Source: Patescibacteria group bacterium (lineage in GTDB: Bacteria; Patescibacteriota; Patescibacteriia; UBA9570). Taken from it: a DNA stretch of 64,000 nt. The stretch is taken from NCBI GenBank assembly GCA_041665365.1, contig JBAYIY010000007.1, positions 11,103 through 75,102 on the forward strand, given 5' to 3'. Made by a program: the position numbers and the translations under genes. Positions 3,444 through 47,159 of the stretch are shown piece after piece. Under the pieces are notes generated by a model, which was not told the DNA's origin, made no database searches, and saw only the letters and a program-made list of their open reading frames with translations. Position 1 is the stretch's first letter, and each line of letters starts with the position of its first letter.

Positions 3444-4517
3444 CTAACCCACCGTGACGGTAGTGACGGCACTGGTAATCGTTTTTCCGTTATGACGGTA
3501 TTTTACTTTATACTTGGCAGTTTTCCTAGCTGTATATGTTTGCGTGTAATATCCTATCTCCGCAGTAGTTAAAGTATCAATTTTTGTATAACTAGTTTTT
3601 CCAGACTTTTTTTGCCAGACCGTAACAGTTTGATTCTGTTTCCCATTTTCAAGCCAACCGTATAAGCGGAATTGTTTACCCTTATTTAGTTCCGTCTTGC
3701 TGGCGGCCAAACTAATGGGCAATTGCTCCTGTACTGTTAACGTTTTGGTCACTGTAGTAGCCTTGGCACTTGGAGCAGTGGTTGCAGATTCAGAAAATAT
3801 CACATTGAGCTCAAACACAGCTCCTCCAGTCACTTCGGTAATATCTAAGGAAGCTTGATTGTCGCCGTCAAATACCGCCATGCCAGCCCAGGCTAGCTCT
3901 TGACCACTATATTCACTCAATAAATCCTTAATTCCATCTGGCATGAAAACGGTCATTGAACCAGTCTTACCTACTGGACCAACCAGTGAATAACCAAACG
4001 CCGGAGTGGCTTGATCTGGTGATGGTGGAATCAAGGCCCAATCTTGAACATTGGTGGATAGCCAAAAACCTTTCATTTCTTCCGGTGGACCATCTTCACC
4101 AGCGGCATTATCTGCTACACCAACTAATGCCACCACCGCGATATTCTCTGGACTGGAACTATCGGTAGGTTGCTTCATACCGGATGGCACAAATTGAACA
4201 GTATAGGTACCGGCATCAGCATTGTACACAGGCGGTGTATCCACGGACATAGTTGTGCCTGGTGCAACCACGCCAGCTGGTTCTTCGTCAACGGTAAACA
4301 CAGCGGTATATTCAACACCGTTAGCAATGTCTGCTTCATCAATCAGCCAGCCAGCCAACACCACCCGTTCCGGTGCGCCACCCATCATATCAGTAATATC
4401 CTGCTGTGGTGCTGGGCTGATGCTTTGTAGGTCGGCTGTAAACGCCCAACCCGACAATGGCAGCAACAAACTAACCCCAAGACCTAGAAAATATTGGAAT
4501 GATTTATTCATAAACAT
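3444..4517 (-). CDS. secreted hypothetical protein with a basic C-terminal ~90-aa domain resembling the C-terminus of the BNR-repeat protein at 4850-7105
   Basis: Signal peptide LGLGVSLLLPLSGWAFTA; its C-terminus (...KYKVKYRHNGKTITSAVTTVTVG) resembles that of the 751-aa protein (...KFKVRWTP...VVTVRVE). Confidence 0.5.
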   Translation of the reverse strand: MFMNKSFQYFLGLGVSLLLPLSGWAFTADLQSISPAPQQDITDMMGGAPERVVLAGWLIDEADIANGVEYTAVFTVDEEPAGVVAPGTTMSVDTPPVYNADAGTYTVQFVPSGMKQPTDSSSPENIAVVALVGVADNAAGEDGPPEEMKGFWLSTNVQDWALIPPSPDQATPAFGYSLVGPVGKTGSMTVFMPDGIKDLLSEYSGQELAWAGMAVFDGDNQASLDITEVTGGAVFELNVIFSESATTAPSAKATTVTKTLTVQEQLPISLAASKTELNKGKQFRLYGWLENGKQNQTVTVWQKKSGKTSYTKIDTLTTAEIGYYTQTYTARKTAKYKVKYRHNGKTITSAVTTVTVG

Positions 4518-7816: not shown

Positions 7817-7821
7817 AGAAA

Positions 7822-7950
7822 CACCTCCCCAACCCTCCTATCGTAGGAGGGAGTTAAGAAATTATCTTAATATTTATCCTACCCTTCCTACAATAGGAAG
7901 GGTGCCCGAGTCATCGAGGGCGGGATGGTGTTTTCCTGATTGGAGGTGTT
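7822..7950. repeat. dispersed repeat family B copy: two GC-rich hairpins CCCTCCTA-TCG-TAGGAGGG and CCCTTCCTA-CAA-TAGGAAGGG, with a GGATGGTGT tail, between convergent genes
   Basis: Related copies at 40492-40612 and 42760-42902, and a partial copy at 20768-20824. Confidence 0.75.
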
Positions 7951-7952
7951 CT

Positions 7953-9764
7953 TTACTCAATCCCTAACTCTTTGCGGCGTTGGGCACTTTTATCTAAAGT
8001 CATTTTGCGCATGCGAATATTTTTTGGGGTTACTTCCACCAGTTCATCATCACCAATATATTCGAGTGAAGCATCTAAATCCATGATACGAGGGGCTTTG
8101 AAATGTTCATCAGTCCCATCACCTTTAGACCGCATGTTGGATAGCTGTTTGGCTTTGCAGATATTTACACTTAAATCAGCGGATCGGGCGTGTTGACCAA
8201 CCACTTGGCCTTTATAGACCTCAATGCCGGGACCAATAAACATAACACCACGATCTTGCACATTGCGTAAACCATACAAATTACTCTGGCCGGTTTCGTG
8301 TGCTACCAGTGAACCTTGATCGCGTTCTTTCCAGGCACCCGGGTCAGGCATGTATTTATAAAACATCGTATTCATAATACCCAAACCGCGCGTATCGGTT
8401 AAAAACTCATTGCGGTAGCCGAACAAACCGCGAGTGGGAATAATAAATTCTATGTAAACAATACCGTTATCAGACGTCATGTTTTGCATCTCACCATGGC
8501 GGCTGCCTAATTTTTGAATGACCGCACCCGAGTAGGCTTCAGGCACTTCGATAAAGATTTGATCATACGGCACCATTTTTTTACCGTCTATTTCTTTCAC
8601 AATTACTTGAGGGCGAGACACTTGTAATTCATAACCCTCGCGGCGTAAACGTTCGATCAAGATAGCTAAATGCAATTCACCACGACCACATACAACCCAA
8701 TTACTTTGCGGTCCATCGGTCACACGTAAGGCAGTATCAGTTTCCAATTCTTTAAAAAGCCTTTCCCGAATTTGGCGCGAGGTAGTAAAGTCACCTTCTT
8801 TACCAGCGAAAGGGGAATCATTCACCGAAAAAGTCATCTTCACAGTTGGCTCTTCGATTGTTAAGAGGGGAAGAGCAATCGGATTTTCCGGATCAGCAAT
8901 TGTTTCACCGATATTGGCTTCAGGTACACCGGCCAGAGCTACAATATCACCCGCGGTGGCTGTTTCAACTTCCGTGCGTCCTAAACCGGAGAAGGCCATA
9001 ATAGAAGTGAGCTTCAAAGTTTTTTGCACTCCTTTACGGTCGATATGAACCACATTTTGGCCGGCGGTTAATTTACCATTATAGATGCGACCAGTGGCGA
9101 TTCTACCTTTAAAACTATCGGCGGTTAAGGTAGTGACTAACAATTGTAATGGTTTAGCTGGATCACCAGTTGGTTCAGGAATATATTTTATAATCGCATC
9201 AAATATTGGGGTGATATCGGTCATGTCTTCCAACTTTGGTTCTAAACCCGCTTTGCCCATTTTAGCGGCCGCATACAAAATCGGGAAATCAGCCGTGGCA
9301 TCATCGGCGCCTAATTCTATAAACAAATCAAAGGTGCGGTTGAGTACTTCATTTATACGCGCATCTGGCTTATCAATTTTATTGATCACCACAATCACTT
9401 TTAGCTTCATTTCTAAGGCTTTACGCAACACAAACCGAGTTTGCGGCATGGGGCCTTCTTTAGCATCGATCAACAACAAACAGCCATTGGCCATTTGTAA
9501 GACGCGTTCGACTTCACCACCAAAATCTGAGTGGCCGGGGGTATCAATAATGTTGATTTTAGTATCATTATACTGAACCGAAGCGTTTTTGGAGAAAATC
9601 GTAATACCTCGTTCCTTTTCGAGATCATTACTATCCATGATTAACTCGGCGCCGGTTTGTTCCTTATTTAGGAAAGTTTTAGATTGGCGCAATAAAGCAT
9701 CGACCAAAGTAGTTTTACCATGGTCAACGTGAGCAATAATAGCAACGTTTCGTAGATTTGACAT
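7953..9764 (-). CDS. typA: translational GTPase TypA/BipA
   Basis: 603 aa; N-terminus NVAIIAHVDHGKTTLVDALL, DTPGHSDFGGEVER, NKIDK; full-length EF-G-like architecture typical of BipA. Confidence 0.95.
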   Translation of the reverse strand: MSNLRNVAIIAHVDHGKTTLVDALLRQSKTFLNKEQTGAELIMDSNDLEKERGITIFSKNASVQYNDTKINIIDTPGHSDFGGEVERVLQMANGCLLLIDAKEGPMPQTRFVLRKALEMKLKVIVVINKIDKPDARINEVLNRTFDLFIELGADDATADFPILYAAAKMGKAGLEPKLEDMTDITPIFDAIIKYIPEPTGDPAKPLQLLVTTLTADSFKGRIATGRIYNGKLTAGQNVVHIDRKGVQKTLKLTSIMAFSGLGRTEVETATAGDIVALAGVPEANIGETIADPENPIALPLLTIEEPTVKMTFSVNDSPFAGKEGDFTTSRQIRERLFKELETDTALRVTDGPQSNWVVCGRGELHLAILIERLRREGYELQVSRPQVIVKEIDGKKMVPYDQIFIEVPEAYSGAVIQKLGSRHGEMQNMTSDNGIVYIEFIIPTRGLFGYRNEFLTDTRGLGIMNTMFYKYMPDPGAWKERDQGSLVAHETGQSNLYGLRNVQDRGVMFIGPGIEVYKGQVVGQHARSADLSVNICKAKQLSNMRSKGDGTDEHFKAPRIMDLDASLEYIGDDELVEVTPKNIRMRKMTLDKSAQRRKELGIE

Positions 9765-9772
9765 AAGGCAAG

Positions 9773-9801
9773 AGTATAATAGGTTACCTTAATGTCGTCA
9801 A
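9773..9801 (-). promoter_or_regulatory. sigma70-type promoter for typA (TTGACG-17 nt-TATACT on the minus strand)
   Basis: Reverse complement of 9773-9801 reads TTGACGacattaaggtaacctatTATACT, immediately upstream of the typA start. Confidence 0.55.
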
Positions 9802-9823
9802 GTTTTTGACAGTTTTTGTTCTG

Positions 9824-12800
9824 TTATTGTTGTCCCATCAATGCACCCATATCTACTCCAGAGATTCTGACTAGTAATGGTAGTAGTTTTTGCAACTCAG
9901 GTATGCGATAAATGTCTTCAGGTTTTTCGGTAACTAAGGCCGCCATTACTTGTCTTTGTAAACGTTGTTGTAAGGCTTCAAAATTACCACCACTTGAGGC
10001 TAGGGCTTTGATTAAATAGTGAAAGTTTTTATCTGGTGTGCTATGTGGTACGCGCATAATACTGCCCACGAGATCTTTAAATAAATCAGCCGTCGTGGCA
10101 TTATCTCGTAATGCCTTATCAATTACTTCTTGCCAAGTTGCAATAGAACTTCTTTGGCCGGTATATTCATGTACAATTCTTGCCACAGGTTCAGTTTCAC
10201 TGCGCAGGCCTTGTTTAATTAAAATTAATTGTACTGTGAATTCAAGAAAATCTTGCTTCATTTTAGTTGTTTCGCACCGTCCGACACTGCCAGCGTCAAT
10301 TAAACCATAACGTTCATGACCCGGACGCAGATCAACAATACTATTGCCGGCATGAGGGTCGGCATGAAAAATTCCATCATCAGCCACTTGATACAACCAA
10401 TCAATGGCGGCACCGGCTTGAGCCGCTTCAACATCAAAAGTCATATATGGTTCAAGTTCTTTATCAGTTGTACCGGCTGTTTGCAGGCGAATAATCTCAG
10501 CCATAGATAAACCTTCATAAAATTCCTCAACAATCAACTGAATGCGTTGAGCCTCACCCTCACCGCGTTCACGTAAATACAATACCTGCGGCACGGACAC
10601 TGGTAAAGCTAACTTACCGACCTGAATTGTGGCACCACGTTTACGTATTTGCTGACCCAAATCACGGGCGGCGGATGCTTCTTTACCGAAATCAAGCTCA
10701 TCGGTCACTAGTTGGCGTATTTCCGGTACAAACCAATCTGGAATGTTATAACCTTCATGCTGTAAGGCAATAACAACACCATCCAGTACAGTCATATCTT
10801 CCGTAAAATTGCGCGCTGTGTTTGGTCGTTCCACTTTAAAAGCCACCGGTTCACCTTTAGCTGTGGTAGCCTTATGCACTTGTTTAATTGAAGCACTGCC
10901 TCTGCATTCACCAATTTCAGTTAGTTGCACACCGTCAGGACGCGCTTGAAATAACTGAGCGGTTCGAGCATAAGCAAAGACACCTCTTTTATTAAACGGT
11001 GCGCATTTATCTCGTAAGTTTCCTAAATCGGTGCGGATGGTTTCATCGCTAATCAAATCAGGCCGTTCTGATAACACCTGACCAACTTTTACACCCACCA
11101 CGCCTAAACCCTGCAGCACCATACGCAAAGCTTCACCGGGGCGTAACTTTGTTTCACGAATTTTTACTTCGCGTAATTCTTCCAAAAGGTTAACCAAGAA
11201 TTCTACGCGGCGCGCTGGTGAATAACCGGACATGACTTCCTGAAAAATAATTTTACCAATGGTTTGCAGTGGGGGATTATCGGCTAAAGCTTCCATGAAG
11301 ACTAATTCAAAAGTATCTTGAGAAAATTTTTGTAGAGCTTCTTTATCTGGTGTGTGGTTATGACCAACATAAATTGAAAAGGGAGCCACTTCACAGATGC
11401 CACCTTCACCCAATAACGCTGAATAAAAAATGGTACGGCGTTCTTCGGAACTTAACGCCCAAAAGGCGGTGACTTTATCTTGCTCATTAATGTTAAAAGT
11501 TTTACTGGCTAAATAGCGATCATCTGGTAGATCACCACCTAACAACCATAATAAAACCTCAGCCCGTTTGCTTCGATCACTGAACATGGCTAAATAATGT
11601 TTCATTGTTTCGGTAGCGGCAAAAGTCGGTGGTTCACCCGGTGGAAAATCTCCTGGATGATTAGCTTGATAGCGATAGGTTAAACGTTCTAACTCACTAC
11701 ATTGCACTTCGGTGGTGGCTAAGTCTGTCATGAGCGCAAACAAGATTGAATCACGATGATGAGTAGCCTTAGGGAAGCGTATTAATACGTGATCCAATAC
11801 AGCATGAAAGGCTTTATCATTCGCGGCCGCCACCATGGCAGGTAACGGTTCAGCTACATTGCCAAGTGTGGCGACACTGGCTTGGTGGTAATCAACGCGT
11901 AAATGATCAATTTCTAAATCAACGGCTTGACGTTCATACATTTCGCGCAAACCTCCCGTCAGAGACACCGCTGTATCCGTTAAGAAATCCGCGATGATTT
12001 TTTTTTGCGGCACGGAAATAAGATCACCCAAGCGTACTAAACCACTCACTTGAACGCTGGGGTATTTATCCATGTACGCATCTTCAACTATATTGGCACC
12101 AGCTACAACAAAATGATCACGCAAACTAATTGTGCGAGACGCTAAACGAATATTCGCTTTGGCCAGTTGATCCGGCGAACAAAACTTATTAACCACTTGC
12201 CACAATTCATGTTGGGCCAACACATGTAAAAAATAATCGCGAAACATACTTGGTTCGGGCATTAATTCCAGCACGTGAGCTCGAGCAGCCTTAAGTGTGT
12301 CTGGTGCTGACTCCACTCGTTCTAGTTCTGGCAGTAATACTCGTGCTGCATATTTAGCTTTATACATCGGGTCAAGCATAGTTTCGCCCTTATCAGTGCG
12401 TTCAACCGTATCGGAAAACAACAGTAACTCCGCACTGGTTGGGTAAGCCTCCGCGGCAACTTTTTGTTCTTGTTTAAGTTCCCTATGACGCTGTGTCCAA
12501 ACTTTATCACTTACGCTACGGTATTCATATGGATGAGAAGAAGTGTCCCAAGTATGTTTACGTACATTTTCAGCTTCATCCTCCGTTATTTTACCACGAT
12601 CTAATAACCATTTCAGTTTCCAGGCAATACCCGCTGCTGTACCTTCGAAATAGTTGGTTTTAACATACCCATTCACCACATCAGCTGAGCGGTTTACTTC
12701 GGCACCATCACCCAGCTCGGCTTTCATTAAAGCCATGAGTTGTTCAAGTTCAGCTGGTGTGCTGCCGAGACGATCAGCTCTTAACGCCAAACAAAAGTTA

Positions 12801-20033: not shown

Positions 20034-20825
20034 ATGCCTGATTTGATTATACAAAATCTACACGCCAGTGTTGATAATAAACCCGTTTTGCAAGGGGTGA
20101 ATTTGACTGTACGGCAAGGGGAGATTCATGCTTTGATGGGTCCGAATGGGTCAGGCAAAACCACTCTTTCACAAGTGATTATGGGTCATCCAAAATATCA
20201 GGTAACAGCTGGCAGTATTGAGTTTAACGGACAGGATATTTTAAAACTAACTCCGGATAAGCGAGCATTATTGGGAATGTTTTTAGCATTTCAATATCCC
20301 AAAGAAATACCCGGTATAAAATTATTCACATTTTTGCGCACGATTTATAACACTAAAACCAAACAGCGTTTAACGATTAAACAATTCCAACAAGTCTTAG
20401 ATGAAAAATTAAATTTGGTGCGGTTAGAAAAAAGTTTTTTGGAACGTTATCTAAACGCTGGTTTTTCTGGTGGCGAAAAGAAAAAAGTTGAGATGCTGCA
20501 GTTAGCTTTACTGCAACCCGATTTAGCCGTGTTAGATGAAACTGATTCCGGTTTAGATATTGATGCTTTACGGACAGTTTGTTCCAGTTTAAAAACAATC
20601 AAAGCCACCCATAATTTAGGTGTGTTATTAATCACTCATTATAACCGCATCTTAGATTATATTGTACCGGATTATGTGCATGTGATGATCGACGGGAAAA
20701 TTGTTCAATCCGGCGATAAAAATTTTGCCAAAGAAGTTGAGGAAAAAGGTTACGATTGGTTGAGAGACCTCACCCCCAACCCCTCTCCTTCTGAAGGAGA
20801 GGGGAGTAAGGGGAGAGGTCAATAA
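20034..20825 (+). CDS. sufC: Fe-S cluster assembly ATPase SufC; the C-terminal ~18 aa are encoded by a family-B hairpin repeat
   Basis: LMGPNGSGKTTL Walker A, LNAGFSGGEKKK ABC signature, LDETDSGLD Walker B; tail ...LTPNPSPSEGEGSKGRGQ derives from CACCCCCAACCCCTCTCCTTCTGAAGGAGAGGGGAG. Confidence 0.9.
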   Translation: MPDLIIQNLHASVDNKPVLQGVNLTVRQGEIHALMGPNGSGKTTLSQVIMGHPKYQVTAGSIEFNGQDILKLTPDKRALLGMFLAFQYPKEIPGIKLFTFLRTIYNTKTKQRLTIKQFQQVLDEKLNLVRLEKSFLERYLNAGFSGGEKKKVEMLQLALLQPDLAVLDETDSGLDIDALRTVCSSLKTIKATHNLGVLLITHYNRILDYIVPDYVHVMIDGKIVQSGDKNFAKEVEEKGYDWLRDLTPNPSPSEGEGSKGRGQ

Positions 20826-32535: not shown

Positions 32536-33197
32536 ACACAATTATTATTTCCCTTGGTGGATCACTTATATTTAATGAAGTCACAAAACAACCGTCGGTT
32601 GAACGAATTAGAATCTACAGTAAATGGTTAAAACGTTTAAGTGCACACCAGCGCGTTATTGTAGTGGTGGGTGGTGGTATTCCGGCGCGACAATATATCA
32701 CAGCCGGTAAGACATTCACAAAAAGTTCAGCTCAACTTGATGAATTAGGTATTGCTGTGTCTCGGATTAATGCACACTTATTACAGTTGGCGTGTGGTCA
32801 GTCGGCGGATAAAAAAATAATTAGTGATCCAAGAGTAATCTTACCAAAGCAAAAAAAGATTTTCATTGGGGCTGGTTGGAAGCCAGGTCGATCGACCGAT
32901 TATGATGCCGTGATGTTAGCGGTGAAAAATAAAGTTGATACAGTATATAATTTATCTAACATCACTTATCTTTACAATAAAGATCCTAAAAAATATAGTG
33001 CTGCCGTAAAAATTACTGATATCACCTGGCCAGATTTACAACTTATCATTGGTAAAACCTGGCAGCCCGGTTTGAATGTACCATTCGATCCAATTGCTGC
33101 GCAGCTGGCCGCCAAACATAAGTTGACCGTTAAAATCATGAATGGCCAAAAGGTGGGGGATTTGAAACACTTTGTTGGGACAGTGATACATTCCTGA
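32532..33197 (+). CDS. amino-acid-kinase-fold protein, UMP kinase (archaeal-type PyrH)-like
   Basis: IISLGGSLI...VVVGGG... motifs; 221 aa. Confidence 0.45.
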   Translation: MNTIIISLGGSLIFNEVTKQPSVERIRIYSKWLKRLSAHQRVIVVVGGGIPARQYITAGKTFTKSSAQLDELGIAVSRINAHLLQLACGQSADKKIISDPRVILPKQKKIFIGAGWKPGRSTDYDAVMLAVKNKVDTVYNLSNITYLYNKDPKKYSAAVKITDITWPDLQLIIGKTWQPGLNVPFDPIAAQLAAKHKLTVKIMNGQKVGDLKHFVGTVIHS

Positions 33198-33222
33198 ATT
33201 TACCCCCACGTATAGACATGCA

Positions 33223-33303
33223 ATCATGTAGAGACGTGCCATCATGTAGAGACGTGCCATCATGTAGAGACGTGCCGGCGGCACGTCTCTACATGATGGC
33301 ACG
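33223..33303. repeat. palindrome family C: three tandem copies of ATCATGTAGAGACGTGCC followed by the inverted half GGCGGCACGTCTCTACATGATGG, forming a perfect stem of about 20 bp
   Basis: Read directly; lies in the rplJ upstream region. Confidence 0.8.
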
Positions 33304-33450
33304 TATTTATCCACAAAGGTATTTGACGGACAACAGCGTAATAGAGTATCATCCGGTTGTATCCACAGACCATAGGCTCAATCGGTAAGACCTATGTAGG
33401 AAAAATGGTCTGCTGGGTATGTAGACCTTTTTAATTTATAAAGAACGCCT

Positions 33451-33966
33451 ATGCCAAAAAATCGAGCGCAAAAAGCGCAATTGCTTGAGGCAATAACGGG
33501 CGCACTCAATCATAAAGGGGTCGTGTTTTTTTCCCATACTGGGTTAAAAGTCACAGATCTAGAAGCTTTGCGCAAAGACATGCGCAAAGAAAACAGTACT
33601 GTGATGGTGGCTAAACGCAACTTATTATTACTCGCTTTAAAACAGCAAGGCATAGCAGTTGACGCAGCACAGTTGGATGGAGCCGTCGCCGTCGCCGTGG
33701 GTGATGACGAAATCACTCCAGCCAAAGTGGTAGCCACATTCAAGAAGAAACACGAAGCAGTAGCTTTCTTCGGAGGGTTAATGGAACATCGTTTCATGAC
33801 CGCCGCTGAAGTGCAACAGCTTTCCACCTTACCAGGTAAGCAAGAGTTATTAGCCAAATTAGTTGGTTCACTCCAGTCGCCCATGACTGGTATGGTCAAC
33901 GTCTTGGTCGGTAATGTCCGCGGCCTGGTTACAGCATTGGATGCGATTCGTGCCCAAAAAGTGTAG
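33451..33966 (+). CDS. rplJ: 50S ribosomal protein L10
   Basis: 171 aa; typical L10 N-terminus and position immediately upstream of rplL. Confidence 0.9.
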   Translation: MPKNRAQKAQLLEAITGALNHKGVVFFSHTGLKVTDLEALRKDMRKENSTVMVAKRNLLLLALKQQGIAVDAAQLDGAVAVAVGDDEITPAKVVATFKKKHEAVAFFGGLMEHRFMTAAEVQQLSTLPGKQELLAKLVGSLQSPMTGMVNVLVGNVRGLVTALDAIRAQKV

Positions 33967-34016
33967 AGACATGCCATGGCATGACTCAACAAATTATTAA
34001 ATAATCATATATCTTT

Positions 34017-34430: not shown

Positions 34431-34452
34431 ACAACAAAGCCTGTCATAAAAA

Positions 34453-34485
34453 ATACCCGGTTGATTATATCGGGTATTTTTTTTA
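34453..34485 (+). terminator. rho-independent terminator after rplL (ATACCCGG-loop-CGGGTAT followed by T8)
   Basis: Hairpin plus T-run; flanked by an A-run, so it may act bidirectionally for the convergent 726-aa gene. Confidence 0.6.
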
Positions 34486-34500
34486 CCACTAAATTGTTGT

Positions 34501-34596
34501 CTTTACCCCCAACCCCCTTGCAGGGGGCTAAGAAAAGATTTTTCTAAATTTTCTTTCTTATCCCCCTGCAAGGGGGACAGAGGGGGTAAAATCCGA
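34501..34596. repeat. MITE-like repeat family A copy: TTTACCCCCAACCCCCTTGCAGGGGGCTAAGAAAA ... TTATCCCCCTGCAAGGGGGACAGAGGGGGTAAAAT (terminal inverted repeats, each containing a CCCCC-TGCA-GGGGG hairpin)
   Basis: Other copies at 38960-39032, 40066-40220 and 42429-42562 (the last inverted, with a 37-nt insertion in one hairpin loop). Confidence 0.8.
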
Positions 34597-34603
34597 GATG
34601 TTC

Positions 34604-38959: not shown

Positions 38960-39032
38960 CTTTACCCCCAACCCCCTTGCAGGGGGCTAAGAAAAAATGT
39001 TTTTAAAAAACTTCTTTGGGGGACTAAGGGGG
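38960..39032. repeat. repeat family A copy (right arm degenerate)
   Basis: CTTTACCCCCAACCCCCTTGCAGGGGGCTAAGAAAAAATG...GGGGGACTAAGGGGGTACATTCC. Confidence 0.7.
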
Positions 39033-39087
39033 TACATTCCAGTAAGCCTTTTGCGAGTTTTATTTTTTTCTGTTATAATTTTAACCA

Positions 39088-39951
39088 ATGAATTATCTTC
39101 GCATTGTCTTTGCCCATTGGATTGCCATATTGTTCATCACCACTGCGGCCGCGGCGCTTACGGTCGGGTTATCTTTTATTCCTACCCAGATGTATTCATC
39201 GGAGGTGTCTTTATTGATTGTGCAGAAACAAGCGCAGTATGTTGACCCTTACACATCACAGAAAGCTGCCGAAAAGTTGGGGCAAAATTTAGTGAATGTG
39301 ATCGACTCATTTGATTTTTTAAACCGCGTTTTGGCCACCGGCACAGTCTCACCCGATTTATTTAGTGCTTCCACTGATGCCCGTAAAAAACAATGGGAAG
39401 CCATGACTGATGCGGAAATGTTTAGTAACACTGGTGTGTTGCATATCACCGCTTATGCCCCCACCGCCGGTGCCGCTGAAGATGTGGTGATGGCCATGAG
39501 TACAGTGCTCACTACTAATTCATCAGATTATCATGGTGGGGGAGATACCGTTGAGATTAAGCTCATCGATGGGCCGGTCACATCGGATAGTCCGGTAAAA
39601 CCAAACATTCCATTAAATGGTGCGATTGCGGCTGTGTTAGGCCTAATCGCCTCGGCGGCTGTATTTATTGTTTATGAAGAAACCAAACGGTTACAAGATG
39701 AACAAGCCAAGGTGAGGTATGTGCAAACCGTCACGCCTGGTAGAGACGTGCCGCCGGCACGTCTCTACGATGATCGGATTGAAAAATCTGATCAAATCAT
39801 AGAGCCCCAATATAAGGTATTAGATGAATACCCCAAACAGCCATATGTGTATGGTGCGGAATTGAAGGATGAAGAACCTCGCCAAGGGGCGGGTGAACCT
39901 CGCCAAGGGGCGGGTGAACCGGTGTCGATGCAGGATCATTTGAAAAAATAG
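39088..39951 (+). CDS. Wzz/YveK-like polysaccharide chain-length-determinant N-terminal domain protein with a C-terminal EPRQGAG tandem repeat
   Basis: N-terminal TM helix followed by YSSEVSLLIVQKQ... typical of Wzz/Cap8A N-termini; a family-C palindrome (39740-39768) and a 21-bp tandem duplication (39886-39927) lie inside the ORF. Confidence 0.4.
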   Translation: MNYLRIVFAHWIAILFITTAAAALTVGLSFIPTQMYSSEVSLLIVQKQAQYVDPYTSQKAAEKLGQNLVNVIDSFDFLNRVLATGTVSPDLFSASTDARKKQWEAMTDAEMFSNTGVLHITAYAPTAGAAEDVVMAMSTVLTTNSSDYHGGGDTVEIKLIDGPVTSDSPVKPNIPLNGAIAAVLGLIASAAVFIVYEETKRLQDEQAKVRYVQTVTPGRDVPPARLYDDRIEKSDQIIEPQYKVLDEYPKQPYVYGAELKDEEPRQGAGEPRQGAGEPVSMQDHLKK

Positions 39952-40065
39952 GGGTTTTCCCCAGTAATTTAGGTAAAAAAACGAGTTCAAATAAATGGAC
40001 TCGTTTTAGTATTGACAAAAAGTAGAAATAATGCTAAATTGTTCAGTTATTTTTGGGGACATATG

Positions 40066-40220
40066 TACCCCCTAGCCCCCTTGCAGGGGGTAAAAGATAA
40101 CAATAAACTTATGCACCTTTTCACTATGAACAGTTAGTACGAACGGGGATACCATGAGTGTACCCCCAACCCTCATCTCTTATCCCCTTGAAAGGGGGAC
40201 AGAGGGGGTAAATTCCGGAG
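40066..40220. repeat. repeat family A copy (long internal region), immediately abutting leader module copy 1
   Basis: GTACCCCCTAGCCCCCTTGCAGGGGGTAAAAG ... CTTATCCCCTTGAAAGGGGGACAGAGGGGGTAAATTCCGGAG. Confidence 0.75.
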
Positions 40221-40760
40221 TGGGTAAACACCAGTTAGTCTCACACGAATCAGATGAGAACACCATCAAAGTGAAGGTGTTGCCATGTGGTTCGTCTGTA
40301 TAGCCGGTGATCAGCAATGATCGCTGGCTGTCATGAATCACTCAACCCGAAAGGGTTAAGCACATTTACAATCTACTTTCCTACTTCGACTCGTTTCACT
40401 CGCTCAGTATAAATTTATTGAGCATGTAAGCTTGTCGAATGATCATCGGTAGCGATATACAGACCTCATCAATATACATACTTCTTTGAGTACACCACCC
40501 TAGCCCTCCTATTCTAGGAGGGAATAAGAATAAATTTTCTTACTCCCTTCCTACAATAGGAAGGGCCGGGGATGGTGTATTCCGGAGAGGGATACGTATC
40601 CGGAGAGGTCTCCATATCGCTACCGATGAAACCAACAATATCGGAGCTCGGTTCCCCAACGGGGAGACATTCGTCGCGGCAATTTCGCCGTGATGTATGT
40701 CCACCCGGACGTGAACCGGGACCGATCGACTTCACTCGACTACATGGAGCTACGAAAACA
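40204..40760 (+). repeat. leader module copy 1 (~555 bp), a mosaic duplicate of 42546-43053, ending at the start codon of the first GC-rich gene; contains a family-B repeat bracketed by a 23-bp imperfect inverted repeat (ATCGGTAGCGATATACAGACCTC / GAGGTCTCCATATCGCTACCGAT)
   Basis: Shared blocks GGGGGTAAATTCCGGAGTGGGTAAACACCAGTTAGTCTCACACGAATCAGATGAGAACACCATCAAAGTGAAGGTGTTGCCATGTGGTTCG, AATCATCGGTAGCGATATACAGACCTCATCAA, the whole family-B element, and GAACCGGGACCGATCGACT...GGAGCTACGA.AATGACG. Confidence 0.8.
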
Positions 40761-42236
40761 ATGACGTTCAAGAACATCCTCGCGATCTTCACGTTCATCT
40801 TCGCCATTCTCGCCCCGGCGACCGTCGCCCAGGCCCAGGAGAAGTGGGAGGATCCAAAAGTGGGTCCGTTCACTCTCGGGTACTGGTCGAAGCTCGATGC
40901 CGGCGCGACCAGTGTCGACGCCGCGGCGGCCGGGATCATGAAGAACTTCAAGGAGTGTGAGAGCAAGTACGGCCAGGGTGGGTGCTACATCCAGTTCGAA
41001 TCATCTACTGACATCAACCGCTGGGACAACACCAAGAATGGCAAGGACGACGCATTGCACGGTGGGCTCGGAGAGGGACGCACCGCGGTCCTCAAGGACG
41101 CGGTGTTTTCTCGATCCGCAAGGATCAAGGAATACTCGGTCACCGACTACCCCCACCACGGTGCGAAAGATGGATGGCGGTACTCCTGGGCGACGATCAT
41201 GCCCAAGGAAGGTGCCTCCGCGATGCCGAAGGTGTCGGCCGACCCCAACAAGAGGTGGAGCTTCCTCACGGAAGTGCTCCTCCGCCAGACCGATAACCTC
41301 TGTCCCACGATGGTGCGGGCGGACGCGGTCACGCGAACCTACACCCTGCAGGGTCAAACCTGCGGGTGCAGCACGTTCGATGCAGTGCCCAGCACCCGCC
41401 AGTTGGAGGTCAGGAACGACCTCACCTGGTTGGGAAAGGTCGTCGCGGACCGCTCGAAGTGGTCCGACGCGAAGACTTTGACCTGGACGGAAGTCCGGGC
41501 CGCTCTCGAGGAGGGCACCGAGTCCCGCGTCATCGAAGTCGACGCGCTCGGCGATCCGTCCTCCACGCCCGACGGTCTGTCCGTTGAGTTCGTGGAGTCG
41601 GAGACCCTGCTCCGGGTGCAGTTCCCGGACAGGTGCTCGCCGATCCTCGACGCCGCGAAGGCAGAGGCCGACGCCAAGGCGCAAGCCAAGGCTCAGGCCG
41701 ACGCCGACGCCCGCGAGTCCGCAAGGCTCGCGGCGTACAACACCGACTTCATGGTCGGTGGGTCGGTCGCGGGTACGGGGACGTTCATCCCCAAGTACAG
41801 CCCCTTCAACCCGGGCAGGGGTTTCGACCTCGCCGGGCACGTCGAGGGCGGTGCGGTGATCGGCGGCGGGTACGGCGCGTGGGCTTTCGGGCTCGGCGTC
41901 GGCCCGTCGTGGGACCCGAACTGCCTGACCCCCGGCCAGGTTGACCTCGAGGCCTTCACCGGCCCGTGGCTCAACAGGCAGGGGAAGGTCGGGTTCTCCG
42001 CCTTCCTGAACGGATCTGCGGGCTTCACCATGTACAACGGTGAAGTCCTCACCCCGCGGTACCGCCTGGGTCTCAACCTGGGCGTGCCCGTGCAGGTGGA
42101 GCGTGAGCTCTACCTGGTTCCCCAGATCGGCCCCGTGGTCGACTGGGTGAGCGGGCAGGTGCAGGCGACCGGCGGCTTCGCGATCACCGAGCGAGTCGGG
42201 ATCGCGGGTGGTCTGCGGATCATCAAGACGTTCTGA
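40761..42236 (+). CDS. GC-rich, probably horizontally acquired secreted protein with a C-terminal OMP-like beta-barrel region (C-terminal Phe). The start is set at MTFKNILAIF; the ORF-track start at 40572 lies inside the repeat leader
   Basis: Signal peptide MTFKNILAIFTFIFAILAPATVAQA; AKAEADAKAQAKAQADADAR low-complexity linker; glycine- and aromatic-rich alternating C-terminal region ending ...GLRIIKTF; codon usage strongly GC3-biased, unlike flanking genes. Confidence 0.6.
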   Translation: MTFKNILAIFTFIFAILAPATVAQAQEKWEDPKVGPFTLGYWSKLDAGATSVDAAAAGIMKNFKECESKYGQGGCYIQFESSTDINRWDNTKNGKDDALHGGLGEGRTAVLKDAVFSRSARIKEYSVTDYPHHGAKDGWRYSWATIMPKEGASAMPKVSADPNKRWSFLTEVLLRQTDNLCPTMVRADAVTRTYTLQGQTCGCSTFDAVPSTRQLEVRNDLTWLGKVVADRSKWSDAKTLTWTEVRAALEEGTESRVIEVDALGDPSSTPDGLSVEFVESETLLRVQFPDRCSPILDAAKAEADAKAQAKAQADADARESARLAAYNTDFMVGGSVAGTGTFIPKYSPFNPGRGFDLAGHVEGGAVIGGGYGAWAFGLGVGPSWDPNCLTPGQVDLEAFTGPWLNRQGKVGFSAFLNGSAGFTMYNGEVLTPRYRLGLNLGVPVQVERELYLVPQIGPVVDWVSGQVQATGGFAITERVGIAGGLRIIKTF

Positions 42237-42428: not shown

Positions 42429-42562
42429 CTTTACCCCCTCTGTCCCCCTCTCGCCTCTGCGAAGCCGCTACGGCGGAGCACGGTGCAGGGGGATAAGAAA
42501 AGAAGTTTTAAAAATATCTTCTCATAGCCCCCTGCAAGGGGGTTGGGGGTAAATTCCGGAGT
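42429..42562. repeat. repeat family A copy in inverted orientation, with a 37-nt GC-rich insertion in one hairpin loop
   Basis: TTTACCCCCTCTGTCCCCC-[TCTCGCCTCTGCGAAGCCGCTACGGCGGAGCACGGTG]-CAGGGGGATAAGAAAAG ... TAGCCCCCTGCAAGGGGGTTGGGGGTAAATTCCGGAG. Confidence 0.75.
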
Positions 42563-43053
42563 GGGTAAACACCAGTTAGTCTCACACGAATCAGATGAGA
42601 ACACCATCAAAGTGAAGGTGTTGCCATGTGGTTCGAAGAGTCATAGTCGATCAGCAATGATCGCTTGTGACCACGAAACACAATTTGTTCTTTAAAATCT
42701 TCTGCTAAGAATCATCGGTAGCGATATACAGACCTCATCAAGCATACACACTTCTTTGAGTACACCACCCTAGCCCCCCGCCTTGCCGGCGTGGCAGGTC
42801 CTATTCTAGGAGGGAATAAGAATAAATTTTCTTACTCCCTTCCTACAATAGGAAGGGCCGGGGATGGTGTATTCCGGAGAGGGATACGTATCCGGAGAGG
42901 TCTCCATATCGCTACCGGTGAAAACAATACCGGCGTGCTCGGTTCCCAGAATGGGAAAGATGCGGTTGTGGGAATGTTCCCATGACATGTGTTCTACCCT
43001 GTTCAAAAGAACCGGGACCGATCGACTACACAATTTCGACTGGAGCTACGACA
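42546..43053 (+). repeat. leader module copy 2 (~510 bp) preceding the second GC-rich gene
   Basis: See copy 1; the central segment differs (about 50 nt versus about 120 nt), and the first hairpin of the family-B element carries a CCCGCCTTGCCGGCGTGGCAGGT insertion. Confidence 0.8.
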
Positions 43054-43839
43054 ATGACGCTCAAAAACATCGTGATCTCGCTCGCGCTCGTCGTCGGTTG
43101 CAAGATGGGCCCGGTGCAGGAATGTGACTCGGACTCGGACTGCTTCGAAACCAACACCAACTCCGATACCGACACCGACGCGGACACGGACACGGACGCC
43201 GACGCTGATACGGACACGGACTCCGACACCGATACCACCGAAACCGACGTGGACAACGACGGCGACGGGTACACCGTGGACGGCGGGGACTGCAACGACG
43301 CCAACGCCAGCGTCCACCCGGGCGCGACCGAGTACTGCAACGGCGTCGACGACGACTGCAACGGGTCGATCGACGACAATGACACCGACGGGGACGGGTA
43401 CGTCTCCGACGACTGCACGTCATATGACGGAGTCGCCGGCCTCCCCGGTGGTGATTGCGCGGATTCGATCGGGACGACGGCGTCCTGGTCGAACAGCGAT
43501 ATCCACCCGGGGCAGTTGGAAATGTACGACTGGATCGACACTAACTGCGACGGCACCGCCGACGATGGATGTAGTATGTTGTGCGACACCGACGGCGACG
43601 GATACGAGAATTTCGAACAGGGCAGCGGGCCCGAGTTCGAGTGCGTGGACGCGTCGTTCGTGGCGGATCAGTCCGCCTCGAGCAGCCCGTTCGATACGAC
43701 GATCTCGTGGACGTATGCCTCCAGCGGAGTGGTTTACTCCGGTGTGAACGCAACGTGCGAAATGACGGCGGCCCAGCAGGTCGATCCGTCAACCTGGAGG
43801 ACGATCACGTCCATCCAGGCCGAGATGGCCACCCGCTAA
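43054..43839 (+). CDS. GC-rich, probably horizontally acquired lipoprotein with a (D-T/D-A)n linker and repeated Cys-rich MopE-type 'putative metal-binding' motifs
   Basis: Lipobox LALVVGC; DTDTDADTDTDADADTDTDSDTDT; DGDGYTVDGGDCNDANASVHPGATEYCNGVDDDCNG and DGDGYVSDDC...DTNCDGTADDGC repeats. Confidence 0.6.
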   Translation: MTLKNIVISLALVVGCKMGPVQECDSDSDCFETNTNSDTDTDADTDTDADADTDTDSDTDTTETDVDNDGDGYTVDGGDCNDANASVHPGATEYCNGVDDDCNGSIDDNDTDGDGYVSDDCTSYDGVAGLPGGDCADSIGTTASWSNSDIHPGQLEMYDWIDTNCDGTADDGCSMLCDTDGDGYENFEQGSGPEFECVDASFVADQSASSSPFDTTISWTYASSGVVYSGVNATCEMTAAQQVDPSTWRTITSIQAEMATR

Positions 43840-44107
43840 AGGTGGTTATCTCAACCGGAGATTGGTAGTTCTCCGGGCACAGACATAAGTGCAAACAAAA
43901 AACCAAAATCTTCTAGCAGAAGATAGATCAGCTCGGGAGGTGGCATGAGTAGAGCACACAAACGCTCCTCGCCACCTCCCACCTTCGCTCTAAGAAGAGC
44001 TTCGGCGGGCAAGCCCACCTAATAATGTATCCAGAATCAAATAGTATTATGGATAGATTAATGGGAAATAGTAATTAACAAATAGGAGTTAGGAAATAAA
44101 TAGGGGG

Positions 44108-45966: not shown

Positions 45967-45989
45967 TGAGATTATTATAACACATCAAT

Positions 45990-46024
45990 CCAGTAGAGAC
46001 ATGCCATGGCATGTCTCTACTGGA
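45990..46024. repeat. family-C perfect palindrome CCAGTAGAGACATGCCATGGCATGTCTCTACTGG (17-bp stem) between the GC-rich minus-strand gene and the O-antigen-ligase gene
   Basis: Read directly; likely transcription terminator or insulator. Confidence 0.7.
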
Positions 46025-46103
46025 TTGATAAAAAAAAGAGGCCCCGGGAGATTGTCATGTACATGCGTAGTACAGACAACCTCAACCGGGGCGTCCAAAT
46101 TCT

Positions 46104-47159
46104 TTACTTGACGGCGACCGTAGGGTTCGCCACCACGAGGATACTCCCCATGATGGTCTCCACGTCGCCGGCGTAATTCCCGCCGGCATTGTGGAGGTCG
46201 ATCCCCTCGGCCTTCACCACCTCTTCCCGGACGCCGTCAGCGACCGGGAAAGCCACCTCGCCCTCGCCGTACGAATCGTCGACGACGAAGAAGAAATGAT
46301 CCCGGGCGACTTCACAAAGTCGTTTGCCCGGGAGAGTGGTCAGACTCGAACACTTGAACCCCTCCGGCAGCACGAGGATGCTGCCCATCGTGAGTTCCGG
46401 AATCGTTCCGGTGTACTCACTCAGGGCGTAGCTATCCCCGGAGCCGGCGAGGGGCCCGGTGAAGCAATCGTAGCCCGACGAGGCGCCATCGCCGCAAGAG
46501 AGGTGGGTATGATCCACCTCAATGGGCAACGGCCGCCCGATCGGGCCAGTCTGAGTCAATTCTCCCACACGCACCGCCTGGGTCGCGGTCGTGTGGGAGC
46601 CACCGTGAGCCCCAACCCAGCGGGTGGAGTCATATCCCTTCTCACACGCGCTGAACGGCGCGGAGTCGGGGAGGACCCACCCGGACGAGCCGTCGAAGTA
46701 GCTGATTTCAACAACGGTACCGTCAGGCTGCAGGGCCGTGACGATCCCATTGTTGTACAGATCATCCGACGTGTCCCTCATGGCGAAGGAATCGGGGAGG
46801 TAAACCTCCCTCGTTCTCCTGCCATCGGGGGCTGTCACGGTCACCGGTGACGAGTCTTTCGACCCGTCGAGGACAAAAACCGGGTCGATGTCGACCCAGT
46901 CAAGTCCTCCGTCCCAGTCCGTCTCGACCGTCCGGGCGATCTTGCGATCAACCTGGAGGTCACGGATCTGGAACGGCACCGAGGCCCAGCACTCGGCCGG
47001 GGTCTCGGTGTCGGTGTCCGCGTCAGTGTCAGAGTCGGTGTCCGTCTCCGCTTCGGGGCAGGTCGCCCCGGGCAGAGACGGATCACAATTGAGCTCTCCA
47101 CACCCCGCCACCAAAATGGTGACCAGGACGAGGAGCAGCTCGATGATGTAGCGCAACAT
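46104..47159 (-). CDS. GC-rich, probably horizontally acquired lipoprotein (351 aa) with a TDTDSDTDADTDTE linker
   Basis: Lipobox ILVAGC; good RBS AGGAGcagtcATG; GC-rich codon usage; several conserved Cys/His (HTHLSCGDG) but no confident family assignment. Confidence 0.55.
   Translation of the reverse strand: MLRYIIELLLVLVTILVAGCGELNCDPSLPGATCPEAETDTDSDTDADTDTETPAECWASVPFQIRDLQVDRKIARTVETDWDGGLDWVDIDPVFVLDGSKDSSPVTVTAPDGRRTREVYLPDSFAMRDTSDDLYNNGIVTALQPDGTVVEISYFDGSSGWVLPDSAPFSACEKGYDSTRWVGAHGGSHTTATQAVRVGELTQTGPIGRPLPIEVDHTHLSCGDGASSGYDCFTGPLAGSGDSYALSEYTGTIPELTMGSILVLPEGFKCSSLTTLPGKRLCEVARDHFFFVVDDSYGEGEVAFPVADGVREEVVKAEGIDLHNAGGNYAGDVETIMGSILVVANPTVAVK

Follow-up and report, generated by a model that had tools for sequence, protein, structure and literature searches.

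A candidate mobile palindromic repeat in the intergenic DNA of a Kerfeldbacteria-like member of the Patescibacteria

At four intergenic sites on a contig from a groundwater-type, tiny-genome member of the Patescibacteria near Candidatus Kerfeldbacteria, short non-coding repeats with inverted ends recur, and the question arises whether these sequences were inserted by a mobile element or are native to the locus and diversified in place. A first-pass annotation of the 64,000-nt stretch of DNA analysed here (the window) regarded them as a non-autonomous mobile element or a recombination hotspot family. According to the reading preferred here, to which we assign a probability of roughly 0.6, the repeat, named family A, is palindromic and dispersed, non-autonomous and specific to the lineage of this Kerfeldbacteria-like member of the Patescibacteria, and is similar in kind to MITEs and REPINs.

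Family A is a real sequence. Inspection found the described repeats at all four annotated sites, where eight arms of the form TTTACCCCC plus 2 or 5 nt plus CCCCCTTGCAGGGGG plus YTAAGAAA are located. In the window, TTTACCCCC matches eight times (0.6 expected by chance), CCCCCTTGCAGGGGG with up to two mismatches six times (0.07 expected) and the pattern ACCCCC-N2-5-CCCCC eight times (0.1 expected), all eight of the latter falling within the four sites. Moreover, independent assemblies from ENA, JGI and Logan contain the repeats with 99.9-100% identity, which are hence not assembly artefacts; the window itself equals contig k141_1147325 (ENA assembly ERZ27249449) except for one 18-nt repeat unit. 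The copies range from 33 to 134 nt without any ORF, and the gene calls of the window place all of them between genes, as first annotated. Five units are present in the window and one on another contig, L075.

Table 1. Positions of family A copies, related palindromic modules and neighbouring features
Feature	Sequence	Position	Strand	Evidence or remark
Copy 1, full length	window	34502..34600	+	arm-model E = 7e-13 and 3e-11
Copy 2, decayed	window	38961..39046	+	alignment and arm model
Copy 3a, solo AA-type arm or mini-element	window	40065..40097	+	arm-model E = 6e-7
Copy 3b, internal deletion, both termini present	window	40160..40222	+	arm-model E = 3e-11
Copy 4, full length, inverted orientation	window	42430..42563	-	5-nt-spacer arm comes first
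Possible solo terminus TTCCTGAA-TTTACCCCC	window	33191..33207	+	tentative; arm-model E no better than 4.4
Sister family A'	window	7817-7952, 40481-40604, 42751-42896
Sister family A'	L095	4119-4200
Sister family A'	L101	1686-1772
Single-hairpin module	window	20766-20822		inside 3' end of sufC-like gene
Family B palindromes	window	33207-33309, 33963-33990, 39740-39768, 45984-46029
GC-rich genes	window	40761-42236, about 43050-43839		between Wzz, Wzy, glycosyltransferase
GC-rich genes	window	46104-47159	-	between Wzz, Wzy, glycosyltransferase
GC-rich genes in relatives	L094	11.4-14.7 kb
GC-rich genes in relatives	L095	4.3-7.8 kb and 10.0-11.2 kb
Leader, ~550 nt	window	40213-40760, 42554-43050		before each GC-rich gene
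Leader, ~550 nt	L095	7783-8400	-	before GC-rich gene
Leader, ~550 nt	L094	14740-15300	-	before GC-rich gene
GC-rich-block 3' hairpin	window	43935-43990
GC-rich-block 3' hairpin	L093	about 10990-11050
GC-rich-block 3' hairpin	L094	about 11420-11480
GC-rich-block 3' hairpin	L095	about 4245-4300
Conserved non-coding block, ~110 nt, upstream of mfd	L075	1590-1700
Conserved non-coding block, ~110 nt, upstream of mfd	L100	about 9780-9890
Conserved non-coding block, ~110 nt, upstream of mfd	L101	about 9745-9850

Alignment of the arms shows that the family A unit consists of two arms, each about 45 nt long, which form an inverted doublet around an AT-rich centre. The arm consensus, (CACTCCGGAA)-TTTACCCCC, spacer, CCCCCTTGCAGGGGG, NTAAGAAA, occurs in two types, an "AA" arm with a 2-nt spacer (TTTACCCCC-AA-CCCCCTTGCAGGGGG-CTAAGAAA) and a "long-spacer" arm with a 5-nt spacer (TTTACCCCC-TCTGT or TTAGT-CCCCCTTGCAGGGGG-ATAAGAAA). 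Since each full copy carries one arm per type in mutually inverted orientation, its fold is a single long hairpin, interrupted by an invariable 2x5-nt internal loop in which AA lies opposite ACAGA or ACTAA. The computed folds reach -57.8 kcal/mol for copy 1 (z = -7.0), -61.8 kcal/mol for the copy in L075 (z = -8.2) and -62.4 kcal/mol for copy 4 (z = -3.7), while copy 2, having lost half of its second hairpin, folds weakly (z = -0.7). Arm alignment and folds thus bear out the annotated non-coding, hairpin-forming family with terminal inverted repeats. The invariant terminal repeat is only TTTACCCCC/GGGGGTAAA with 9 bp; the extended terminal repeat of ~19 bp, CACTCCGGAATTTACCCCC, is found at both ends only in L075 and at one end in the window copies. 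An extension outside TTTACCCCC with the consensus CACTCCGGAA is common to seven arms, and a flank motif, TTCCGR, is located on one side of the element, beside either arm type depending on the copy. The copies differ among themselves by 10-18%, giving no sign of recent activity.

The individual copies are variants of this plan. Copy 1 consists of the AA-arm TTTACCCCC-AA-CCCCCTTGCAGGGGG-CTAAGAAA, the AT-rich centre, TTTCTTAT-CCCCCTGCAAGGGGG-ACAGA-GGGGGTAAA and the flank ATCCGAGATG, with the rplL terminator on one side and, on the other, the 3' end of a convergent 726-aa gene. Copy 2, situated after the stop codon of a 240-aa gene and ahead of the -35 box belonging to the Wzz-like gene, has an intact AA-arm, while its second hairpin is ~14 nt shorter (GGGGG-ACTAA-GGGGGTAC, flank ATTCCAGTAAG). 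The annotated third copy (40066-40220) turned out to be composite: its supposed core of ~90 nt is native leader, of which about 60 nt, conserved in relatives, separate copies 3a and 3b. Copy 3a (GTACCCCC-TAG-CCCCCTTGCAGGGGG-TAAAAGA) is positioned in a 5' leader, ~25 nt downstream of a promoter at 40012-40040, and copy 3b, with its internally deleted unit at 40160-40212, reads GTACCCCC-AA-CCC..TCTCTTAT-CCCCTTGAAAGGGGG-ACAGA-GGGGGTAAA plus TTCCGGAGTG, directly adjoined by the core of leader 1. Copies 2, 3a and 3b have all lost internal parts and retained both termini. Copy 4, with its repeat unit at 42430-42553, is inverted, as annotated, and one of its C5/G5 hairpins is interrupted at 42449-42483 by ~35 nt of inserted GC-rich sequence; a search for a donor of this insertion returned chance 10-12-mers only. 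It ends in GGGGG-TT-GGGGGTAAA-TTCCGGAGTG, adjoining the core of leader 2. A tentative solo terminus at 33191-33207 overlaps the stop codon of a 221-aa kinase gene and adjoins family B palindromes.

Three syntenic relatives (L093, L094, L095), whose Wzz is 60-65% identical to that of the window, allow the sites to be compared; they have the gene order rplJ-rplL, convergent 726-aa gene, DUF5656, 240-aa gene, Wzz, GC-rich genes and Wzy in common with the window. At the orthologous junctions, the arm model found a full family A copy in none of the three and no strong match either, the one weak match being a single arm in L093 at the site of copy 1 (CCGAAG-TTAACCCC-AAA-CCCCTTTCAAGGG, E = 0.004). 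This site may thus be old or repeatedly targeted, and copy 1 at least may be ancient and native and not inserted. The junction before Wzz measures 131 nt in the window and a repeat-free 44-66 nt in the relatives, the difference being copy 2. Compared with L094 and L095, copy 3a is likewise a clean 33-nt insertion. The conserved blocks that it separates, AGTTATTTTT and CTTATGCAC, are common to all three sequences, as is the promoter upstream. The flanks of copies 1, 2 and 3a and of the L075 copy are unrelated to one another. In contrast, the 91 nt following copies 3 and 4, with which the leader of the GC-rich genes begins, are 100% identical (40204-40294 and 42545-42635). Copies 3b and 4 share this flank through a leader duplication or conversion, which also carried the element's last 9-19 nt, and are not independent insertions. 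The abutment of two copies to the leaders, noted in the first-pass annotation, is seen but at least partly explained by this recent event.

If the repeat were confined to this locus, local duplication would be indicated, as the annotation had pointed out; it is not confined. Although the arm model revealed no further copies across 72.7 kb of the contig, and the window copies occupy just 9.2 kb thereof (P about 0.001 under uniform placement), a full copy with 82% identity and both arms extended is present in L075. It lies in the intergenic region upstream of mfd, immediately upstream of a promoter. In the syntenic contigs L100 and L101, which share their MAG or sample of origin with L093 and L095, the orthologous site contains the promoter and a conserved non-coding block without the element. 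L075 is very probably from the window's own species. Its tetranucleotide profile and that of the window correlate at 0.95, compared with 0.32-0.79 for the relatives, both have 69% DNA identity to the same reference MAG, and a 100%-identical twin of L075, Logan contig L103, is found in run SRR6484324, in which the window strain also occurs at 100% identity. Assemblers usually break contigs at repeats, so that the end of L103 exactly inside the family A element is as expected. The conserved block upstream of mfd, with the motifs AATCATCCAAATGTATAGGYGAGACAAAAGCCTACTTGA...GGAGGAGTGAG...CTGGATGGCT in three genomes, has no Rfam match at the gathering threshold and may be a small RNA.

Wider surveys added no further members. 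Among GTDB species genomes, where the species of the window is not represented, ACCCCC-N2-5-CCCCCTTGCAGGGGG gave 48 single matches in unrelated, mostly GC-rich taxa, none with the TTTACCCCC and TAAGAAA context, and these are treated as unrelated C5/G5 hairpin motifs. In JGI metagenome contigs 30 loci matched, L075 being the only true family member; six matches in an IMG/VR scan were all unrelated to family A, and a BLAST search of plasmids and phages with copy 1 gave no match. In total, five or six copies (counting 3a and 3b apart) and one tentative solo terminus are found in the ~82 kb surveyed.

Two signs of transposition which the first-pass annotation had proposed to look for were not seen in the DNA surveyed. 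Comparison by eye of the flanks of copies 1, 2, 3a, 3b, 4 and the L075 copy gave no consistent target-site duplication, the empty sites in L100, L101, L094 and L095 being too diverged to reveal a hidden one. A GAGTG repeat flanking copy 3b and the similar flanks TGGTTAAAACC and TGGGTAAACACC of copy 4 were considered as candidates and dismissed, as neither is general across copies. Furthermore, in ~73 kb of the contig, with gene calls across positions 15283-83816, there is no transposase, RAYT, Y1_Tnp-type, integrase or tyrosine/serine recombinase domain, and neither TnpA nor TnpB was found near the copies. Mobility as originally claimed is hence favoured by the two orientations, the unrelated flanks and the lack of full copies at the relatives' junctions, while clustering and the missing duplication and transposase speak against it.

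How such a repeat could have spread can be outlined on the basis of its architecture. As single-stranded DNA or RNA, the doublet forms one long hairpin with its fixed 2x5-nt loop; the mobilising enzyme would have to act in trans. Copies would have entered several unrelated intergenic sites (a 5' leader and places near promoters and terminators), facing either way. Deletions and insertions between the C5/G5 runs would then have eroded them, with both ends kept. Because of the hairpin ends, the motif on one flank and the absence of a detected target-site duplication, a single-strand route in REP/REPIN or IS200/IS605 style would fit better than a cut-and-paste MITE. Copies 3a, 3b and 4, situated in the transcribed leader of GC-rich surface-protein genes, probably act there as nothing but passive strong RNA hairpins.

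Among known systems, REPINs come closest in architecture. These are inverted, hairpin-forming REP doublets whose mobility depends on RAYT transposases (Bertels and Rainey 2011, PMC3116915). Family A is also an inverted doublet of short conserved units, each with a small G/C palindrome, joined by a less conserved spacer and forming one long hairpin as a whole; its singlets resemble decayed doublets, and its copies are extragenic and lack target-site duplications. It differs in that its arms do not carry a GTAG-type 5' tetranucleotide, no RAYT gene, which accompanies REPs as a linked single copy with the repeats on its flanks, is seen in the contig gene calls, and its host is a member of the Patescibacteria and not a proteobacterium. 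Besides, it is represented by few, clustered copies, whereas REPINs number tens to hundreds genome-wide and spread through extragenic space. With bacterial MITEs of the Correia/NEMIS, ERIC and RUP types (reviewed in PMC2229807, PMC3184786, PMC10969869), family A has in common the non-coding, imperfectly palindromic unit of 75-135 bp bounded by terminal inverted repeats, the intergenic position beside promoters and terminators, size variants due to internal deletions or insertions at fixed points, and co-transcription with neighbouring genes as strong RNA hairpins. However, there is no sequence similarity to these elements, no TA or other target-site duplication and no known parent insertion sequence, none being present in ~73 kb of the contig. 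The perfect repeat of family A is only 9 bp, extended to ~19 bp on many arms and at both ends only in L075; for classical MITEs, derived from DDE insertion sequences, terminal inverted repeats of at least 10-15 bp are expected (PMC11602168). As target-site duplications, a parent transposase and a RAYT gene were not found in the DNA surveyed and copies are few, family A is described as working like REPINs and bacterial MITEs and not as a member of either group.

Similarities also exist to the subterminal hairpins of IS200/IS605 elements and their miniature derivatives, namely hairpin ends with an asymmetric bulge, insertion without duplication and a short conserved motif on one flank, TTCCGR, which could be a target or guide sequence. 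TnpA and TnpB are missing near family A, though, and the flank motif stands beside either arm type. In unrelated bacteria (Sideroxydans, Methylococcaceae and others; L016, L017, L077), modules such as ACCCCC-T-CCCCCTTGCAGGGGG-AGGGYTGGGGA-GGGGGTARAAAC display the same C-run/G-run outer arms around a C5-TTGCA-G5 hairpin, a resemblance which could be convergence or reflect a widespread unnamed motif class.

The main rival to a mobile repeat is a native structural module, i.e. one version of the clade's two-hairpin intergenic modules (terminators, insulators or RNA-processing hairpins), which diversified in place by local segmental duplication and gene conversion instead of transposition. A sister family with the same layout, A', occurs in the window and in relatives, often between convergent genes, and corresponding hairpins in L095 and L094 are followed by T-runs like real terminators; the arm-like sequence in L093, the clustering in the window and the origin of copies 3b and 4 with the leader duplication point in the same direction. 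Against this, no U-tract follows the family A hairpins, the sequence directly 3' being CTAAGAAAAG or ATAAGAAAG, and a terminator scan called none of them, so that intrinsic terminators were rejected as a class; rplL, moreover, already has its own canonical terminator at 34450-34485, separate from copy 1. Placement by segmental duplication is excluded for copies 1, 2, 3a and the L075 copy by their unrelated flanks. The L075 copy belongs to a different contig, where relatives have an empty site, and bringing ~90 nt into new intergenic sites needs some insertion mechanism. Diversification in place thus appears rather unlikely, while the small number of copies, their clustering and the dependence of copies 3b and 4 count against the mobile repeat.

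Two further readings find little support. Recombination sites, used in the manner of integron attC or of an invertase or shufflon for capture, duplication and inversion of GC-rich surface-protein cassettes, would account for two copies lying exactly at the 5' edge of duplicated leader-gene units and for the inversion of the GC-rich block relative to L094 and L095. Even the attC-like layout is superficially present, with two inverted-repeat boxes, one nested within the other, an asymmetric spacer that stays unpaired, a variable-length centre and a position at gene ends. The termini TTTACCCCC/GGGGGTAAA, however, differ from the attC cores RYYYAAC/GTTRRRY, neither an integrase domain nor attI nor a tyrosine or serine recombinase is present in the ~73 kb of contig, and the distal end of the inverted block (43.8-44.1 kb) is free of copies. 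The genes flanked by family A do not form a one-directional cassette array, copies 1, 2 and that in L075 stand beside ordinary housekeeping genes, and the relatives keep the same leaders and GC-rich genes without family A. This function is therefore very improbable; integron attC and invertase sites were both rejected, and the recombination hotspot of the first-pass annotation remains speculation. About equally improbable is a multi-copy structured non-coding RNA gene or cis-regulatory RNA. Very stable folds, the conserved internal loop and the presence of three copies in a transcribed leader downstream of a conserved promoter agree with it, but Rfam at the gathering threshold detects only tRNA in the window, and in E-value mode family A matches only generic miRNA-precursor hairpin models (18-36 bits compared with thresholds of 67-117). 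The copies also face either way with respect to adjacent genes, those with large deletions persist, and relatives keeping the same genes lack the repeat. A DNA-uptake sequence was discarded as family A is far too rare, and a G-quadruplex as there are only three G-runs per strand.

A mobile repeat thus remains the preferred explanation, and family A is best read as belonging to a broader group of two-hairpin modules in the clade, of which it forms one branch. The sister family A' follows the same ground plan of outer C-run/G-run arms and two G/C hairpins: it has outer arms ACACC(A/T)CCCC and GGGGATGGTGT, a TAAGAA..TTCTTA centre, a TTCCGGAG flank and the hairpins CCCTCC-TATTCT-GGAGGG and CCCTTCC-TACAATA-GGAAGGG. 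Its copy in leader 2 has a 22-nt GC-rich hairpin insertion, like family A copy 4. A single-hairpin module, ACCTCACCCC-CAA-CCCCTCTCC..GGAGAGGGG-AGTAA-GGGGAGAGGT, provides the C-terminal tail DLTPNPSPSEGEGSKGRGQ and the stop codon of a sufC-like gene and, by analogy, resembles an in-frame insertion of a palindromic element. In-frame insertions of palindromic elements are known from Rickettsia. Family B, in turn, comprises perfect palindromes on GTAGAGAC(G/A)TGCC with a GTAG start like classical REPs; one copy lies in frame within the Wzz-like ORF (RDVPPARLY), and at 33207-33276 an 18-nt unit stands in tandem, three times in the window and twice in ENA contig L049. Family A, A' and the sufC module have an outer stem, a fixed asymmetric 2x5 loop, an inner G/C stem, the TAAGAA centre and the TTCCGGAG flank in common. 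That they form one superfamily recognised by a putative single-strand DNA enzyme of Patescibacteria, with copies serving as breakpoints at which GC-rich surface-protein units are duplicated or inverted, is an improbable extension; if true, it would be a small-genome route to surface variation.

The GC-rich genes have a GC content of 60-68%, compared with about 41% for the genome, and encode secreted or lipoprotein-like products with D-T/D-S repeats and MopE-like Cys motifs. As relatives have such genes at the same place, they represent a conserved lineage feature and not a one-off transfer. The block is inverted in the window compared with L094 and L095. The idea of a cassette was tried by searching for homologues of GC-rich gene 1, for which only gene 1 itself matched among 5.8 billion proteins. 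The leader preceding each gene matches nothing in Rfam and resembles a structured 5' leader of an undescribed kind: across three species a 20-nt block, TTTACAATCTACTTTCCTAC, is 100% identical and accompanied by TGTCATGAATCAC, a ACGAATCAG...TGATTCGT stem and a hairpin with covarying stems, and a 25-bp stem pairs 40443-40467 with 40605-40629. On the 3' side of the GC-rich block, a hairpin GGGAGGTGG...CCACCTCCC is conserved in four of four genomes. In L094, a bAvd / 23S_rRNA_IVP-type four-helix-bundle gene (10834-11214, minus strand) directly follows Wzz beside the GC-rich genes; a link to a diversity-generating retroelement is possible, and no reverse transcriptase was seen in the L094 DNA examined.

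Proteobacteria, firmicutes and cyanobacteria are well-known hosts of small palindromic mobile repeats, while genomes of the candidate phyla radiation are very small and usually thought to be repeat-poor. No report of such repeats in candidate-phyla-radiation bacteria was found in the literature searched, which makes family A mildly new for Patescibacteria, though not a new kind of thing. From a practical point of view, family A elements break assemblies, as in the case of L103, and could serve as strain markers. Several palindromic families are present in a single 64-kb window, some inside coding ends and some in the leader of GC-rich surface-protein genes, suggesting that such elements shape intergenic architecture and perhaps surface-gene expression in this group.
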